The notes beneath the pieces are model-generated. The model was not told the DNA's origin, did no database searches, and saw only the letters and a program-made list of their open reading frames with translations. Below are positions 694 through 46,833 of a DNA stretch of 46,833 nt, in pieces (position 1 is the first letter of the stretch; every line of letters starts with the position of its first letter). This stretch comes from Escherichia phage vB_EcoS Sa179lw. Position numbers and translations under genes: made by a program. The DNA lies in sequence record NC_054637.1. One strand, written 5' to 3'.

Positions 694-2573
<1,880 letters not shown>

Positions 2574-2575
2574 TA

Positions 2576-3646
2576 ATGGAAAAGATTATTTTTACCAAAG
2601 ATTTGGTGGCCAACTCCGCAGTGGTGGCTGACCAGTGGAAACATCTCACCATCGACCGTAAAGTGTTCTGCAACGCAGAAGCTGAGCTGGCGAAAACTTA
2701 CGGTGTTAACGCCACCGCACTGGTAACGAAAGATTACTGGCGCGACGTGGATAACGTCACCACCCGTGTTTTCCGCAACGAAGCTGGTCAGGACATGATG
2801 GCTGACCTGATGGGTATCGCGGCAAACATCAACATCGGTAAGACTGTGGCAATCAGCCGTATTGCTTCCGATGCTGGTAAGGTAGTCCGCACTCTGTCTG
2901 GTCAGGAGCCGGAAGATTTGGATAAAACCCGCTACGATTACACTGGCGATGTGATTCCAATCTTCAAGACTGGCTACAGCCGCGAATGGCGTGAGCTGCT
3001 GGGTATGCAGTCTGAAGGCTTCGACCCGCTGCTGGACGATCAGGCCAACGTTACCTTTAACCTGCGTTCCGACATGGCGCAATATCTGCTGACTGGCGAC
3101 CAGACTCTGAACGTGAATGGCGTTTACACTGGCTACGGCATCACCAACCACCCGAACACTGTTCAGGTTAACCTGAACGTTTCCGGTGGCCTGAATATCG
3201 ACCTGCAAACCGCAACGCCAGACGAAATCGTGAAATTCTTCAATCAGGATTTCCAGGCTATTCTGGATGCGCAGAACGTATTCGAGCAGGTTACCTTGTG
3301 GGTTTCTCCAGCAGTGCGTCGCAGCTTCATGCGCCCGTATTCTGATGCAGCTGGCTTCAAAGGCGGCACGGTTGAGCAGTACATCACTCAGTTCGGTAAT
3401 GGTCGCATTGGCAAGATTGGCACCAACTTCCTGCTGACTGGTAACCATTTCGTTGGCTACGTTCGCAACGACATGTACATCCGTCCGCGTGTTGCTCAGC
3501 CGGTTTCCACCTATGCGGCAGCTCGCGATAACCCGCACGATAACTTCAACTTCCTTGTGTGGTCAGCTTTTGGGCTTCAGGTGCGCAAGGATTTCACTGG
3601 CAAGTCCAAAGTGTTCAACGGATACGGTACGCAAACTCCGCTGTAA
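2576..3646 (+). CDS. Major capsid protein, 356 aa
   Basis: Size, position after scaffold/decoration genes, strong terminator immediately downstream. Confidence 0.7.
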   Translation: MEKIIFTKDLVANSAVVADQWKHLTIDRKVFCNAEAELAKTYGVNATALVTKDYWRDVDNVTTRVFRNEAGQDMMADLMGIAANINIGKTVAISRIASDAGKVVRTLSGQEPEDLDKTRYDYTGDVIPIFKTGYSREWRELLGMQSEGFDPLLDDQANVTFNLRSDMAQYLLTGDQTLNVNGVYTGYGITNHPNTVQVNLNVSGGLNIDLQTATPDEIVKFFNQDFQAILDAQNVFEQVTLWVSPAVRRSFMRPYSDAAGFKGGTVEQYITQFGNGRIGKIGTNFLLTGNHFVGYVRNDMYIRPRVAQPVSTYAAARDNPHDNFNFLVWSAFGLQVRKDFTGKSKVFNGYGTQTPL

Positions 3647-7244: not shown

Positions 7245-7280
7245 CACTAACTATAAACGCCACTTCAATCTACGTCAACA
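7245..7280 (-). promoter_or_regulatory. Sigma70-like early promoter: TTGACG, 17-bp spacer, TATAGT (minus strand)
   Basis: -35 at 7273-7278 and -10 at 7250-7255 read on the minus strand; contains the recurring ATCTACGTCA motif. Confidence 0.6.
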
Positions 7281-33484: not shown

Positions 33485-33527
33485 GCACATAACCACCATT
33501 GCTTTCCTCATATCATCACCCAACCTT

Positions 33528-33595: not shown

Positions 33596-34057
33596 ATGTC
33601 AGATAAACCAATCGGGCGACCGACAGAATACAAACCTGATTACGATGAGCAGGCTTACAACTATTGCCTGCTTGGCGCTACCGATAAGCAGCTTGCAACT
33701 TTCTTTGATGTGAGCGAGCAGACAATAAACGCGTGGAAGCACAAGCACCCTTCGTTTCTTGAGTCCTTAAGGCGCGGAAAGGAAATTGCAGATGCGCGAG
33801 TTGCTCAGGCTTTGTTCAGTAGGGCTACCGGTTATGAGCACCCAGAAGACGATATCAAGGCGGTTAATGGTGAAATAGTAATCACACCAACAATAAAAAG
33901 ATACCCGCCAGACCCTACATCAATGATTTTCTGGCTAAAAAACAGACAGCCAAAATTGTGGCGAGATAAACCTGAGTCGGAAGGTTCTGATGGTGACGGC
34001 GCAATCCATAAAGTGCAGATTGAGGTGATTAGTGCAGATAAGAGTAACGGCAACTGA
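33596..34057 (+). CDS. terS: Terminase small subunit, 153 aa
   Basis: Immediately upstream of and overlapping the large terminase; N-terminal HTH-like segment. Confidence 0.65.
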   Translation: MSDKPIGRPTEYKPDYDEQAYNYCLLGATDKQLATFFDVSEQTINAWKHKHPSFLESLRRGKEIADARVAQALFSRATGYEHPEDDIKAVNGEIVITPTIKRYPPDPTSMIFWLKNRQPKLWRDKPESEGSDGDGAIHKVQIEVISADKSNGN

Positions 34058-35339
34058 GCCACAAGCCAGATACCTGAATCTTAAGTGTAAATTCCCGGCT
34101 TTTATTGCTGGCTTTGGCACTGGAAAGTCAGAAACCATGTGCAACTCAGCACTTCTTGATAGCCTTGAGGGTGGTTCAGATAGTCTGGTCGCTTTGTATG
34201 AGCCGACCTATGACCTCGTGCGTCTTATTCTTGCCCCCCGCATGGAGGAGAAACTAATCGACTGGGGTGTCAGGTACAAATACAACAAGGCAGAGAACAT
34301 AATTTACACGTCATCAGGACAGATGGGGGATTTTGTCCTCAGGACTCTTGATAATCCAGCGCGAATAGTTGGTTATGAGTCGTTCAGGGCAAAGATAGAC
34401 GAAATTGACACCCTTAAGCAAGAACATGCATCTGAGGCGTGGATAAAAATAATTGCCCGTAATCGACAGCGCCCAAGAACTTATATGGATACCTCAGGAA
34501 AGCCAATGAACACTGTTGGCATATTCTCAACCCCAGAGGGGTTCCGGTTTGTTTATGACAGATGGGTAAAGAACAAAAAGGATGGGTACGAAATGGTGCA
34601 GGCAAGCACTATGAGCAACCCTTTCCTTCCTGATGATTACGTTCAGTCGCTGCGAGATAGCTATCCACCGCAACTCATTGAGGCATATTTGCAGGGCGAG
34701 TTTGTAAACCTCACATCTGGCACTGTCTATCCTCAATTCGACAGGAATCTTAATCACAGCGATGAGGAATACAGGACGGGTGAGCCAGCCCATGTCGGCA
34801 TGGACTTCAACGTAGGAAAGATGTCTGCGATTATCCATGTTGAAAGGAATGGCGACCCGATCGCAGTTGGCGAGATACTCGGAGCTTACGATACGCCGGA
34901 AATGATTCGGTTAATAAAACAGCGCCTGTGGAGGGAGACATCAAATGGCGAGTTTGAGAAACTGTGTGAAATTTATGTTTATCCTGATGCATCGGGCGGT
35001 AGCCGTAAAACCGTGAACGCTGGCACGTCAGATATAGCCTTATTGAGAGATGCTGGCTTTCATGTTATGGCTGACAGTAAGAACCCGCCGGTCAGGGACC
35101 GCATCAACTCTGTTAACGCGATGTTCTGCAACGCTGAAGGCGAGCGCAGATACAAGGTAAATACAAAGCTGTGCCCAATCTACACTGAGGCGAGAGAGCA
35201 GCAGATTTACAACAAGCAGGGAGAACCAGACAAAACTCACGATAAGGACCACCCGAACGATGCGGCTGATTATTACATTTATAATAAGTTCCCACTCGTA
35301 CGACCAATGGCAGCAATGCTAATTCGGCGCAGGCGTTAA
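34032..35339 (+). CDS. terL: Terminase large subunit, 435 aa
   Basis: Walker A GFGTGKS near the N-terminus; C-terminal nuclease-like acidic motifs; GTG start after GAGGTGA. Confidence 0.85.
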   Translation: MQIRVTATEPQARYLNLKCKFPAFIAGFGTGKSETMCNSALLDSLEGGSDSLVALYEPTYDLVRLILAPRMEEKLIDWGVRYKYNKAENIIYTSSGQMGDFVLRTLDNPARIVGYESFRAKIDEIDTLKQEHASEAWIKIIARNRQRPRTYMDTSGKPMNTVGIFSTPEGFRFVYDRWVKNKKDGYEMVQASTMSNPFLPDDYVQSLRDSYPPQLIEAYLQGEFVNLTSGTVYPQFDRNLNHSDEEYRTGEPAHVGMDFNVGKMSAIIHVERNGDPIAVGEILGAYDTPEMIRLIKQRLWRETSNGEFEKLCEIYVYPDASGGSRKTVNAGTSDIALLRDAGFHVMADSKNPPVRDRINSVNAMFCNAEGERRYKVNTKLCPIYTEAREQQIYNKQGEPDKTHDKDHPNDAADYYIYNKFPLVRPMAAMLIRRRR

Positions 35340-35342
35340 AAA

Positions 35343-35366
35343 TAAAGCCCTCAAATGAGGGCTTGT
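35343..35366. terminator. Bidirectional terminator between terminase and a convergent gene
   Basis: Hairpin AAGCCCTCAAATGAGGGCTT; T tract on the minus strand. Confidence 0.55.
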
Positions 35367-35369
35367 TGG

Positions 35370-35723
35370 CTAGTGTGTGTACATGATGCTTTTGCACGTT
35401 TTCATTGGCACACCGATTGCATCCCAAAATTCGACGTTTTCACAAGCCAAAAAGCAAAACAGCATTGATTGAGGCCATGAAGAATGAGCACTTTTCCAGT
35501 AGGTGCCGCGCTTGATTTGCTCGGCTTCATCGTTGAGGCAGTGAATAAAGAATTCTGTGCCATCGCTGGTTTCATTCCATTCGTGTGATTTACCCAAGCA
35601 GAAATGGTGCAGAAAGCGGTCTATGTAGGATGATTTGCTTGCTGATATCCCCATTACAATCATTCTGATAACCCTAATAGCATATACGTTCTGCACTTCA
35701 GCACTTCGTTCATGACCTTGCAT
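35370..35723 (-). CDS. Hypothetical protein, 117 aa
   Basis: ORF track; ATG 35723 lies downstream of the promoter at 35768-35800. Confidence 0.5.
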   Translation of the reverse strand: MQGHERSAEVQNVYAIRVIRMIVMGISASKSSYIDRFLHHFCLGKSHEWNETSDGTEFFIHCLNDEAEQIKRGTYWKSAHSSWPQSMLFCFLACENVEFWDAIGVPMKTCKSIMYTH

Positions 35724-35767
35724 TGCCTTATCCTAATTCATCTGCGACCCCGCGCCGCTCTATGAGT

Positions 35768-35800
35768 TAAATCTACATCACCAACATATCTACGTCAACA
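35768..35800 (-). promoter_or_regulatory. Leftward early promoter: TTGACG, 17-bp spacer, TAGATT (minus strand)
   Basis: -35 at 35793-35798, -10 at 35770-35775 on the minus strand. Confidence 0.55.
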
Positions 35801-35834
35801 TTTATTATTGTTGTTGATAAATCCACACCACAAC

Positions 35835-35868
35835 ACTTGACCAATCTACACCGTGCGCATATAGTTAT
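35835..35868 (+). promoter_or_regulatory. Rightward early promoter: TTGACC, 17-bp spacer, TATAGT
   Basis: -35 at 35837-35842, -10 at 35860-35865; AATCTACACC in the spacer. Confidence 0.6.
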
Positions 35869-35896
35869 CTACATCGGAAACATCGGAGGTGCTACT

Positions 35897-36103
35897 ATGC
35901 GCAGCTATGCAGGATTTACACAGGAGGAAAAAGAGCAGGTTTATTCACTGGCGCGTGCTGGTGTGCCTGATGATGTGATTTGCCGTCGGTATGACATCGA
36001 CGAGGATTTCCTGCTGCGCGTCATTGATGATGTCTTCGTTAACCTGCAAGAGAAGCGTGGGTACAAGGGTATCTGCTGCAAGAATGATTTTTTGAGAGGG
36101 TGA
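35897..36103 (+). CDS. Hypothetical protein, 68 aa
   Basis: ATG at 35897 preceded by GGAGGTG. Confidence 0.5.
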   Translation: MRSYAGFTQEEKEQVYSLARAGVPDDVICRRYDIDEDFLLRVIDDVFVNLQEKRGYKGICCKNDFLRG

Positions 36104-36294
36104 TTATGAGAGATTTTGTAAGAGATTTTCTGTTATTGGTATTAAGTACACCATCGCATTGGTGATTGCTTTCCCGCTTATCTGGCTGATTAGATGGGAA
36201 GCGCCAAGTATTGATGACATTCTAAACTGGCAGGTTTTCAGGATTTTTATCGGCTTGTGGATTTTATCAGCCATTGCCGCATGGTGGGTTAATC

Positions 36295-36702
36295 ATGTTC
36301 AGGAATAAACTAAAGAAAATAATCCGCGACGCTGCGGATAAGAAATACACCAAAAAGATTGATATATCATTCATTGACGGCACTGGAATGTACAACCACG
36401 CATGTCATCTGAATGCGGTAAATCGTGCGCGTGATGGGAGTTCGTGCGCAGTGGTTGAGGTTGTGGTGATTGATGACAAATCGGTGACCGCTCATTACAT
36501 CAATATGCAGTCAGACGGTACATACATCGACTACACGCTCGGCTGGCACTGGTCTGGTGCTGATTACCGATTTGTGCGCTTCGTCCCGTTCACGGAATGG
36601 GCTGATATTACTGGCGCGCTAAACAGGCTTAAAGCTGAACTGTGCAAGCCGGTGGCTAAATGGCAGAAGTTGTTAATGGTAACTGATGGTGAACTTTGTT
36701 GA
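36295..36702 (+). CDS. Hypothetical protein, 135 aa
   Basis: ORF track with internal ATG (MFRNKLKK) chosen. Confidence 0.5.
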   Translation: MFRNKLKKIIRDAADKKYTKKIDISFIDGTGMYNHACHLNAVNRARDGSSCAVVEVVVIDDKSVTAHYINMQSDGTYIDYTLGWHWSGADYRFVRFVPFTEWADITGALNRLKAELCKPVAKWQKLLMVTDGELC

Positions 36703-36711
36703 GGTGATGTG

Positions 36712-36906
36712 ATGATTATTGATGAAACAGAAAATGCATATGACATGCACGTAACTGAGCAAGAGCTTGAGGATGGAACCCCTGTCGTAGAGTTGTATCA
36801 AGAGAATGGCTCAGGTGTCGACTCATTTATTGGCATAGACAAACACCAAGCCTCGCAACTAATCGAAGTCCTGCAACGCTGGGTTAATGGTGAGGAGATT
36901 GAGTGA
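36712..36906 (+). CDS. Highly acidic small protein, 64 aa
   Basis: About 16 D/E versus 2 K/R; RBS GAGGTGA. Confidence 0.5.
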   Translation: MIIDETENAYDMHVTEQELEDGTPVVELYQENGSGVDSFIGIDKHQASQLIEVLQRWVNGEEIE

Positions 36907-37136
36907 TGATGAATACCAAACAAAGATACAGGATGGGATATTGCGTCTGGCTGCAAGAGACTATTAGTGATTTTCTTGATAAGAAAATGTTGGCAGACAT
37001 GGTTTATGGATTGTTGTGTTTCCTGCTGCTTATCTCTTTTCCAGTTTCAATGCCGATGGTTGCTGCAATAAGAATGATAGTAACCAAGCGGAATATTAGA
37101 AAACAGTATGCTCGCGATGAACTGATGGAGGATTGA
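36903..37136 (+). CDS. Small membrane protein, 77 aa
   Basis: Hydrophobic segment LADMVYGLLCFLLLISFPVSMPMVAAI; coupled to neighbours. Confidence 0.45.
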   Translation: MMMNTKQRYRMGYCVWLQETISDFLDKKMLADMVYGLLCFLLLISFPVSMPMVAAIRMIVTKRNIRKQYARDELMED

Positions 37137-37139
37137 GTG

Positions 37140-37451
37140 ATGAGCATAAAAAATCCAATGCACCCGGGCGAGTTTCTGCTGGAGGCATTCATGAAGCCAT
37201 TCGGAATTGGTGTTAAGAAAATGGCCGATGCACTTGGGGTTTCGCAGTCAACAGTTAGCAGGCTCATCAACAAGAAGGCTGATTTAACTGCCGACATGGC
37301 TGTCAGATTGTCCGTTGTTGTTGGGAGGTCACCAGAGTCATGGTTGAATATGCAAAACAATTACAGCCTAAATAGACTTACCGCCGATAATGGTCGCTTA
37401 CTGTCATCTTTGAAGCCAATTAAATTTGATTTTGATTACAAGGTGGAGTGA
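37140..37451 (+). CDS. higA: HigA-like XRE-family HTH antitoxin homolog, about 103 aa
   Basis: HPGEFLLEAF...SQSTVSRLINKKADLTADMAVRLSVVVGRSPESWLNMQNNYSL closely parallels the recalled E. coli HigA sequence; no HigB/RelE-like partner adjacent. Confidence 0.8.
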   Translation: MSIKNPMHPGEFLLEAFMKPFGIGVKKMADALGVSQSTVSRLINKKADLTADMAVRLSVVVGRSPESWLNMQNNYSLNRLTADNGRLLSSLKPIKFDFDYKVE

Positions 37452-37664: not shown

Positions 37665-37695
37665 TAATCCCTCCATCGTGAGGGATTTTTTATTG
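37665..37695 (+). terminator. Rho-independent terminator before the portal gene
   Basis: Hairpin ATCCCTCCATCGTGAGGGAT followed by TTTTTATT. Confidence 0.65.
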
Positions 37696-41627: not shown

Positions 41628-41906
41628 ATGAAACTATCGCGACGCGGCAAAGAGACGCTTGGAATCACCGATGCCGTGGATATATCGCCTTACATCACCA
41701 CCGAGACGACACAGAATCAGTTTGATGCGCTGACGAGCCTTGCTACTGACATTGGCATTGACGTGTTCCGTAAATCAACGCTTCTGAAGAAGCACAATCT
41801 CCGCTGCTTCTCATGTGCTGTTGCGCATTTCATCGTGTGGGGCGAGAAGACTGGCGACAAAGCAAAACGCAAAGCTGAAAAAGAGGTTTACTGGTATGGC
41901 TATTAG
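41628..41906 (+). CDS. Hypothetical hydrophilic protein, 92 aa, overlapping the endolysin start
   Basis: RBS AGGAGG before ATG 41628; no transmembrane segment seen. Confidence 0.5.
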   Translation: MKLSRRGKETLGITDAVDISPYITTETTQNQFDALTSLATDIGIDVFRKSTLLKKHNLRCFSCAVAHFIVWGEKTGDKAKRKAEKEVYWYGY

Positions 41907-42360
41907 CAAAAACATGAAGGCATTTTTGGATATGCTGGCGTACAGTGAGGGCACGGATAACGGGCGACAGAAAACTAATAATCATGGCTATGATGTGATT
42001 GTTGGTGGCTCACTGTTTACTGACTATTCCGACCACCCACGCAAGCTGATTAGCCTGCCAAATCTGGGTATCAAATCCACTGCCGCCGGGCGCTATCAGG
42101 TGCTGGCTAAGTTCTATGATGCGTACAAAAAGCAGTTGCGCCTGCCTGACTTCTCTCCCGCATCGCAGGACGCTATTGCAATACAGCTAATTCGTGAATG
42201 CAAAGCCACCGCCGATATTGAGGCTGGTCGCATTGCTGATGCTATTCATAAATGCCGTTCCCGCTGGGCCTCACTGCCGGGCGCTGGTTATGGTCAGCAT
42301 GAGCAAAAACTGGATAAGCTGATTCAGGTGTACAAGTCCGCTGGCGGGACGGTCGCATGA
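41896..42360 (+). CDS. R: Endolysin, lambda R-like lytic transglycosylase, 154 aa
   Basis: KAFLDMLAYSEGTDNGRQKT.NHGYDVIVGG.LFTDYSDHPRKL and WASLPGAGYGQ match the lambda R sequence as recalled. Confidence 0.85.
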   Translation: MAISKNMKAFLDMLAYSEGTDNGRQKTNNHGYDVIVGGSLFTDYSDHPRKLISLPNLGIKSTAAGRYQVLAKFYDAYKKQLRLPDFSPASQDAIAIQLIRECKATADIEAGRIADAIHKCRSRWASLPGAGYGQHEQKLDKLIQVYKSAGGTVA

Positions 42361-42596
42361 AAAAGCTAAGCAACTGGCTGCTTGGCCTGTGGATTTCATT
42401 CTGCTCGCTATTGCAGATATGGCCTGAGTCCATGCTTTATGTGTGGGCCATGATGCCGGACGACCTGAAATCTGCGCTGCCACCTTTTGCTGTTAAAGGG
42501 GTCAGTTATTCCGTTATGCTGGCGGCGATTCTTGGCAAGATGCATGCGATGAATAAGGCGAATAAGAGGCTAAAAGATGAGAGTAATGATGCGTGA
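42357..42596 (+). CDS. Candidate holin (two hydrophobic segments, charged C-terminus), 79 aa
   Basis: Hydrophobic segments LSNWLLGLWISFCSLLQIW and VSYSVMLAAILG; ATGA coupling to the endolysin gene. Confidence 0.45.
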   Translation: MKKLSNWLLGLWISFCSLLQIWPESMLYVWAMMPDDLKSALPPFAVKGVSYSVMLAAILGKMHAMNKANKRLKDESNDA

Positions 42597-42718
42597 AATA
42601 CATAAGTCCATAAAGGCGCGAGGTGGTTTTTATTCTGCATATCAGACCACCAAGGGATTGCACCTCATAACCAATTGCATGGCATTCCCACATCTGTGGC
42701 TGGCGGGAGCACTGAAAG

Positions 42719-43210
42719 ATGATGGCAATTCTCACTAAATACTGGCGACCGCTGGCAATTATTATAATTGTCGCTATCTGCGCGCTATGGGTTGTTAACA
42801 AGGTGTCCAGCTATGGTGAGCAGAGATACAACGACGGGTATGCGAAGGCTGTAGCAGAACAGAAGGCCGCAAACAAAAAAGAGGAGCAACGACGCAATGC
42901 AGAACTGCAAAAGATTCAGGCTGACGCACAACAAAGGATTGATGCTGCGCGCAACGATGCTGTCAACGCTGCTGCTAAGTCTGGCAGGTTGCAGCAACAG
43001 CTCGCAAATATCCGCAAGCAGCTTGTCGGATATTCCGCCGCTGAGTTCATTGGCAATCCAGCCGCAGAAACCGGAGTTTTGCTTGCCGACGTGCTCAGCA
43101 AATCTGTCGAAAGAAATCGACAGCTGGCAGATTACGCTGACAGGGCAAGAGAAGCAGGATTAGCGTGTGAGGCGCAGTACAATTCGCTGCGCAATAAAAA
43201 AGCCCCGTAA
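42719..43210 (+). CDS. Rz: Rz-like i-spanin, 163 aa
   Basis: N-terminal TM segment followed by coiled-coil-like Q/A/R/E-rich periplasmic domain; position after the endolysin. Confidence 0.65.
   Translation: MMAILTKYWRPLAIIIIVAICALWVVNKVSSYGEQRYNDGYAKAVAEQKAANKKEEQRRNAELQKIQADAQQRIDAARNDAVNAAAKSGRLQQQLANIRKQLVGYSAAEFIGNPAAETGVLLADVLSKSVERNRQLADYADRAREAGLACEAQYNSLRNKKAP
42942..43163 (+). CDS. Rz1: Rz1-like o-spanin lipoprotein, embedded in the +1 frame of the Rz-like gene
   Basis: Lipobox-like LSLAGC followed by a Pro-rich segment; entirely within the Rz-like gene. Confidence 0.55.
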   Translation: MLRATMLSTLLLSLAGCSNSSQISASSLSDIPPLSSLAIQPQKPEFCLPTCSANLSKEIDSWQITLTGQEKQD

Positions 43211-46351: not shown

Positions 46352-46739
46352 GCATAAATCCGGCAGAACTCTGTTTGTGACATCAGATGAGTTTATTGCC
46401 AATAACCGTAGAAAGATGGGCTGGATAGTGGAGGAAGTGAAGATGACGAGTAGAGAGCGGTTTGAAGAAGAAATGAGCGATAAATATGAGTGGTTCAGTG
46501 ATGCGATCGCTTGTGCTGATTTTTGCGGTGACGATGATGATGGCTACTATGTTGGCGGTGATTATCTCTATTATGGAACTTCATGTTCAGAGGCTTTGTT
46601 CTGGTTATGGCGAGGATGGCAGGCATCGCGAGCGGCTATTCAGATTCAGGCATGCCCATACCCAAACAACCACGGACCACATGTTGATGACTATTACCTC
46701 GACCAAATTAACAACGCAGGCTTAAAGGTAAAAAAATGA
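46335..46739 (+). CDS. Hypothetical protein, 134 aa, with acidic Cys-containing segment
   Basis: ORF track; coupled (ATGA) to the gene at 30-356 via the duplicated end. Confidence 0.5.
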   Translation: MRWAIKHKSGRTLFVTSDEFIANNRRKMGWIVEEVKMTSRERFEEEMSDKYEWFSDAIACADFCGDDDDGYYVGGDYLYYGTSCSEALFWLWRGWQASRAAIQIQACPYPNNHGPHVDDYYLDQINNAGLKVKK

Positions 46740-46833
46740 TTATCCAGTTAAACGACATCATGAAAGCAGACATTATTCAGCTTGAAGATTATGACATGCA
46801 GCTGGCGTTTGAAATTGAAACCGTTGAGCGGCA
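46707..46833. repeat. Second copy of the 127-bp terminal duplication
   Basis: Identical to bases 1-127. Confidence 0.9.

Follow-up and report, generated by a model that had tools for sequence, protein, structure and literature searches.

We have found that a short open reading frame (ORF) and an adjoining hydrophobic frame without a start, located on the plus strand at 36106-36308 of the genome of Escherichia phage vB_EcoS Sa179lw, are the two halves of one conserved 67-codon gene split by the loss of a single base. The window referred to throughout is the whole 46,833-nucleotide stretch of DNA that was analyzed (NC_054637.1). This is an ordinary case of an accessory gene that has been either broken or mis-sequenced, and not a new coding mechanism. 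The gene is a conserved accessory gene of Jersey-like (C1 / IME207 / BS5-type) enterobacterial siphoviruses, present in the window as a frameshifted copy, and it is probable, in our judgment, that the deletion is genuine, recent and loss-of-function.

Two halves of a 67-codon gene

The first half of the gene is preceded by a Shine-Dalgarno (SD) box, GAGAGGG (36094-36100, + strand), which serves the ATG at 36106-36108 and forms an anti-SD duplex of -6.6 kcal/mol, among the best ~9% of positions. The sequence around this box, GAGAGGGTGATTATG, is invariant across the alignments of the relatives; the only exception is PSH-1, where a single G/A difference lies immediately 5′ of the box. The earlier note had described the ATG as opening a 19-codon ORF, and this was confirmed, with the refinement that the ATG has a good, conserved SD; the product is MRDFVRDFLLLVLSTPSHW*, terminated by TGA at 36163-36165. 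The window sequence over this region reads …GAGAGGGTGATT-ATG-AGA-GAT-TTT-GTA-AGA-GAT-TTT-CTG-TTA-TTG-GTA-…-TGG-TGA. Its first nine codons (36106-36132, + strand; MRDFVRDFL) are native-frame codons 1-9 of a 67-codon membrane-protein gene and are identical to codons 1-9 of C1 and IME207. They are followed by an out-of-frame tail, LLVLSTPSHW, and the premature TGA (36133-36165 in all, + strand).

The lesion lies at the junction. Codon 10 is reduced to a remnant 'TT' (36133-36134, + strand), where relatives have TTT, TTC or CTT, such that codons 9-11 read CTG-TT-ATT in the window and CTG-TTT-ATT, CTG-TTC-ATT or CTT-CTT-ATT in the relatives. DNA alignments with C1, IME207, Bas78, BS5, PSH-1, EcoIv28_Lewi and metagenome scaffold L008 contain a single gap column, which is found in the window only and falls inside codon 10, and blastn against C1 reports an isolated 1-nt deletion at ~36135. 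The span from ATG to TAA is consequently 203 nt in the window vs 204 nt in relatives. Across the lesion, the deletion allele is CTGTTATTGG and the intact allele is CTGTTTATTGG or CTGTTCATTGG. When one base is restored, a 67-aa protein, MRDFVRDFLFIGIKYTIALVIAFPLIWLIRWEAPSIDDILNWQVFRIFIGLWILSAIAAWWVNHVQE, is obtained. Of the options that had been offered for this locus, an indel is therefore the one that held: alignment with eight relatives shows that the 67-codon gene is continuous but for one base missing from codon 10. The window copy has no uninterrupted 67-codon ORF running from the conserved SD and ATG, and thus represents a disrupted member of its family.

The second half comprises codons 11-67 and the stop codon TAA at 36306-36308 (36135-36308, + strand), and lies in the -1 frame relative to the ATG at 36106. 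The frame is open from 36096 to this TAA and encodes EGDYERFCKRFSVIGIKYTIALVIAFPLIWLIRWEAPSIDDILNWQVFRIFIGLWILSAIAAWWVNHVQE* with no Met codon at all; its translation from 36096 begins EGDYERFCKRFSVIGIKYTIAL and ends WWVNHVQE, and the 57-residue hydrophobic string quoted previously corresponds exactly to 36135-36305. The only canonical start codons in the frame are the adjacent TTG (36159) and GTG (36162), which occupy 36159-36164 on the + strand, and the GTG overlaps the premature stop as GTGA. Anti-SD pairing in the 20 nt upstream of these codons amounts to just -0.9 kcal/mol, vs a window-wide background mean of -2.1 kcal/mol; the value for the start of the downstream 135-aa gene is -5.4 kcal/mol. 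The description of the hydrophobic frame as having no ATG and no ribosome-binding site is accordingly correct, because its TTG and GTG pair with the anti-SD more weakly than the background mean.

Ribosomes initiating at the family's normal SD and the ATG at 36106 would read nine native codons and then, because one base of codon 10 is missing, ten out-of-frame codons before stopping at the TGA at 36163. The remaining 57 native codons (36135-36305) would be stranded in the -1 frame, with neither a start codon nor an SD to serve them. From the genome as written, a peptide of 19 aa would thus be made, but no functional 67-aa protein.

A near-repeat had also been reported in this region, and it is real: GAGATTTTG at 36110-36118 and GAGATTTTC at 36122-36130 are spaced 12 nt apart and in frame. 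They encode a doubled tripeptide R-D-F (MRDFVRDF), and relatives carry the same doubling. The repeat was rejected as a slippage or indel cause; it is coding sequence (RDF-V-RDF) that intact relatives share, and the second copy ends 3-4 nt upstream of the gap.

Intact orthologues, constraint and predicted structure

Eight related Escherichia/Salmonella siphoviruses have the gene as one unbroken ORF of 204 nt that uses the same SD and ATG: C1, IME207, Bas77, Bas78, BS5, PSH-1, EcoIv28_Lewi and scaffold L008. In the first five, a 204-nt CDS is annotated at this position, beginning 2 nt after the 68-aa gene; in PSH-1, EcoIv28_Lewi and L008, the equivalent ORF is present. The intact orthologues, all labelled 'hypothetical protein', include Escherichia phage C1 gp56 (YP_010054331.1 / AYR02300.1), Salmonella phage IME207 ANW46800.1, VB_StyS_BS5 QHB48586.1, Bas78_0006 (XPK42949.1) and Bas77_0006 (XPK40618.1). 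The window copy has the same position, SD and ATG as its orthologues, and once the base is restored its protein is 82-91% identical to theirs over all 67 residues. It differs from them in the base lost from codon 10 and in private substitutions, namely RIF for RLV/RLF at residues 46-48, L54 and V62.

Searches with the repaired protein placed it within a wider family. All 67 residues aligned in each of the eight phage genomes (82-91% identity, E 1e-33 to 1e-27), and identity to ~25 Klebsiella-phage records was 31-35%. It was matched by 36 database protein clusters, all 36 at 100% query coverage and 34 of them exactly 67 aa in length. The family N-terminus across these clusters is M-R-x-F-[AV]-R-D-F-L, and the family-invariant residues (F8, T16, I17, L19, W27, L28, I29, N41, V44, L51, W52, S55, I57 and W60) are all kept in the repaired copy. 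Two family clusters, P0003 and P0023, have a called length of 86 aa owing to 19 additional N-terminal residues, MSLLVMIFAIWLTDFERVI-MREF…, which probably reflect an upstream alternative start in contigs with a different preceding gene. A distant 67-aa homologue with a GTG start, MMKRFLFSWLYLF…SFPVCWLIKWQPP…, lies at 2498-2701 of locus L025 (Klebsiella phage vB_Kpn_F14) and is absent from its GenBank annotation. That record instead annotates a minus-strand 208-aa CDS (2470-3096) across the homologue, which looks spurious. Profile searches with the repaired protein against Pfam, PHROGs (v4), NCBIfam and PADLOC returned no family, and a literature search on phage C1 / Deseoctovirus returned nothing on the 67-aa gene.

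The gene is under purifying selection in the relatives. Far from lacking coding potential here, which the earlier note had named as the observation that would speak against its reading, related phages are strongly constrained, with dN/dS values of 0.04-0.33 at dS values of 0.16-0.52 (pairwise Nei-Gojobori comparisons of the eight intact copies). The repaired window copy falls at 0.14-0.31 and contains no further stop or indel. Since there is no second lesion and dN/dS is normal, the break in the window should be either recent or artefactual.

A hydropathy scan of the protein gave two hydrophobic peaks, at residues ~7-31 and ~43-62. An AlphaFold2 model was built on P0002, an 88%-identical homologue, with a 34-sequence alignment, and contained helices at 2-30 and 42-66 (mean pLDDT 82). 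The helices are joined by a conserved loop, RWExPSIDDILNWQ, and this motif is present in the window's frame-3 translation. The 67-aa protein is thus predicted to form a two-helix membrane hairpin. A Foldseek search of the P0002 model against BFVD gave a best match of E = 3 and nothing below.

Class II holins or pinholins, such as S21-68 of phage 21, are ~65-95 aa in length and have two transmembrane helices. The 67-aa protein is alike in size and in its predicted two-helix hydrophobic hairpin, but this is a resemblance only. No holin profile or fold was found for it in Pfam, PHROGs, NCBIfam or PADLOC, and a single 'Holin' match in BFVD had E = 6.9. Unlike holins, its gene lies outside the lysis cassette, in which holin, endolysin and spanin homologues occupy ~41628-43207, ~5.3 kb away, and which includes the window's own holin homologue (42357-42578).

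Origin of the deletion

We infer that the deletion is biological rather than technical. A genuine mutation is favored over an artefact because no other gene is broken, because the ends of the record carry a 127-bp k-mer-type overlap, and because no long homopolymer is involved. The competing explanation is that the phage is truly intact at the 67-codon gene and that the T was lost from the record through an error in sequencing, consensus calling or assembly, which we consider possible but rather unlikely. An error would leave the rest of the gene undamaged and evolving like its intact homologues, as is seen, and shortening of a short T run (TTT to TT) belongs to the commonest class of indel error. 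The allele is also unique among the collections searched: the deletion-allele pattern had no matches in IMG/VR, JGI metagenomes or GTDB genomes, while an intact-allele control pattern had three matches in IMG/VR and one in the metagenome collection. Because of these zero matches in three collections, the deletion allele stands without independent confirmation in nature. Exact-protein matches were likewise absent from the records for the 135-aa neighbor, for the 49-aa TTG-start ORF and for the 435-aa TerL.

Several observations speak against an error. When 156 annotated C1 and Sf11 proteins were compared with the window by tblastn, no frame break was found in other genes, and ~60 well-conserved shared genes were single-frame over the homologous span. 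A split-gene scan with 1,315 stop-to-stop ORFs from all fetched loci flagged, within coding sequence, only ~36130; its other flags were intergenic (4790, 10140, 33490-33510 and 35860-35870) or reflected IME207-private differences (43460). Window bases 1-127 and 46707-46833 form an exact 127-bp direct repeat. Rather than a biological terminal repeat, this is the k-mer overlap left when a circular contig is built from short reads by a k=127 de Bruijn assembler, although it marks the assembler's k-mer and not a lack of later long-read polishing; because of the overlap, a gene at 30-353 is partly duplicated at 46736-46831. The overlap points to short-read de Bruijn assembly, in which consensus indels at runs of 2-3 nt are rare. 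The lesion context is TT(T), and longer T runs nearby (TTTT at 36114, TTTT at 36126 and TTTTT at 36244) are intact.

A functional split gene would require either a -1 slip on U-UUU (36114-36117 or 36126-36129), giving the full-length protein, or reinitiation at the GUGA of 36162-36165, giving 48-49 aa, and is in our estimation very improbable. The native frame would be restored by a -1 shift anywhere in codons 1-19, and a tRNA-Phe slip at GAU-UUU-C, as read from the sequence, would yield MRDFVRDF-SV-IGIKY..., which is near wild type. The 91-nt stretch downstream also folds somewhat better than shuffles (z = -2.1). However, no X XXY YYZ heptamer occurs in 36106-36165, where there are just the two TTTT runs, and the sole hairpin (5 bp, 36149-36164) begins 19 nt after the second TTTT, whereas a stimulatory structure would be expected 5-9 nt from the slip site, and has a stem that is not conserved in C1. 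Every relative (8/8) and every cluster (36/36) is single-frame, so nothing has selected for recoding. The layout is superficially like that of programmed -1 frameshifting in the tail assembly chaperones G/GT and in E. coli dnaX, in that a short, well-started ORF is overlapped by a start-less -1 ORF; unlike those systems, it has neither a slippery heptamer nor a conserved stimulator, and no relative shows the two-frame layout. The suggestion of a frameshift, if taken to mean a programmed one, was thus not upheld, as there is no slippery heptamer and a frame change is needed in none of the eight genomes and none of the 36 clusters. Because the GTG at 36162 overlaps the stop TGA at 36163, weak termination-reinitiation at GTGA is conceivable, but neither the TTG nor the GTG has an SD, and the product would keep ~11 residues of helix 1, too short for a membrane span.

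Least probable is a role for the 19-codon ORF as a regulatory leader peptide (uORF) of a downstream membrane-protein gene; a short leader peptide had also been proposed. The ORF is short, has a good SD and lies directly upstream of the hydrophobic frame, but none of the relatives contains it as an independent ORF, its first nine codons are the N-terminus of the 67-aa protein, its last ten are frameshift read-out, and the frame that follows offers no initiation signals on which it could act. Even combined, the recoding, reinitiation and leader alternatives carry at most a very small likelihood.

Genomic setting and significance

The genome is that of a ~46.8-kb Jersey-like enterobacterial siphovirus that shares ~90% identity with Shigella phage Sf11 and Escherichia phage C1 across large parts of its length. 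No record identical to the window was found in the phage collection. A resident prophage region was considered as its source and rejected, as megablast against E. coli complete genomes gave no match.

The 67-aa gene belongs to an operon of small genes between the terminase and the portal, bordered by terminator-like hairpins at 35345-35364 and 37666-37687. A promoter-like site, TTGACC-17-TATAGT (35837-35865, + strand), precedes this operon; it is identified solely by its match to the consensus, at 10 of 12 positions. Upstream of the 67-aa gene is a 68-aa gene (35897-36103, + strand; stop TGA at 36101-36103) assigned to phrog_13301, a label without a function. The exact 68-aa protein occurs in 563 blocks of public assemblies, and its C1 and Sf11 homologues are 97-99% identical. 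Downstream is a 135-aa gene assigned to phrog_6596 (36295-36702, + strand), the ATG of which lies inside the end of the 67-codon gene, giving a 14-nt overlap; this overlap is also annotated in C1, IME207, Bas77 and Bas78. The window copy therefore has the syntenic position of the family: between terminase and portal, it directly follows the 68-aa gene (phrog_13301) and overlaps the 135-aa gene (phrog_6596). Scaffold L008 has the same order and overlap. A mild polar effect on the overlapped gene is possible: with the premature stop located ~130 nt earlier, the 135-aa gene would have to rely for its translation on its own SD, which is moderate.

This terminase-portal region is hypervariable, and the 67-aa gene is an exchangeable, dispensable cassette within it. 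Ten contigs encoding the identical 68-aa protein have widely differing gene sets directly after it. The 67-aa gene is dispensable because it is cleanly absent in contigs L011 and L015, where it is missing exactly at the start-codon boundary and the sequence runs …GAGAGGGTGAT|GTG-TTT-AAT… straight into the 135-aa gene; the junction of the 68-aa and 135-aa genes without the cassette lies at 3205-3212 in both. Since the cassette is exchangeable and dispensable, loss of the gene should be tolerated. The borders of the cassette in the window (36094-36108 and 36283-36297) carry similar SD-start strings, GGGTGATTATG and GGGTTAATCATG. Gain or loss of the cassette by recombination at gene-start micro-homologies is suggested.

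Several other features of the region and of the genome were observed. The large terminase (34032-35339) is 435 aa and contains Pfam Terminase_6N and Terminase_6C; tblastn showed no similarity between it and the large terminases (473/474 aa) of C1 and Sf11, which are otherwise the closest relatives. At the same position, related contigs L009-L016 encode 474-aa terminases with Pfam Terminase_3/Terminase_3C, and scaffold L008 carries the window's terminase type at 91% nt identity. From these sequence comparisons, the pattern looks like a swap of the terminase module. Between the terminase and the 68-aa gene, ~480 bp (35340-35815) have no counterpart in C1, IME207 and Bas78, where the spacer measures 76 nt. 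This insert contains a 117-aa minus-strand ORF (35370-35723) matching phrog_19403 'head protein' (E 4.5e-60), along with the terminator-like hairpin at 35345-35364. Other relatives have different minus-strand genes at this site, for example a PAPS reductase in L011 and L013.

The motif ATCYACRYC occurs in 16 copies vs 2.4 expected (maximum of nine in 100 shuffles). Five same-strand copies are clustered at 35771-35875, ahead of the 68-aa gene and across its promoter-like site, and further copies lie at 7268, 10177, 12184, 30812, 41546, 41573, 43687, 44661 and 44688, most of them apparently in intergenic regions or divergent promoters. Judged by its distribution, the motif looks like a phage-wide operator or promoter element. 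Farther downstream, a 104-aa ORF (37137-37451) belongs to the HigA family of antitoxins (TIGR02607, E 8e-30, above the curated cut-off); no HigB toxin was recognizable beside it, and the ORF that precedes it (36903-37136) encodes a hydrophobic 77-aa product with no family match.

For annotation, the appropriate entry is a single frameshifted gene or pseudogene with C1 gp56 and IME207 ANW46800 as its homologues; a 19-aa peptide with an orphan ORF, or a recoding site, is not. The finding indicates that a conserved two-helix membrane protein is dispensable, which fits its pattern of presence and absence in the hypervariable terminase-portal region. If the deletion is real, the phage is a natural knock-out that can be compared with intact relatives for phenotype. 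It is speculative, and in our view improbable, that the deletion was selected, with the membrane protein knocked out, or reduced to a trace through a rare -1 slip at U-UUU-C, as it may be toxic in the propagation host or sensed by that host's defence. Were this the case, the broken gene would mark a phage protein that triggers host immunity.
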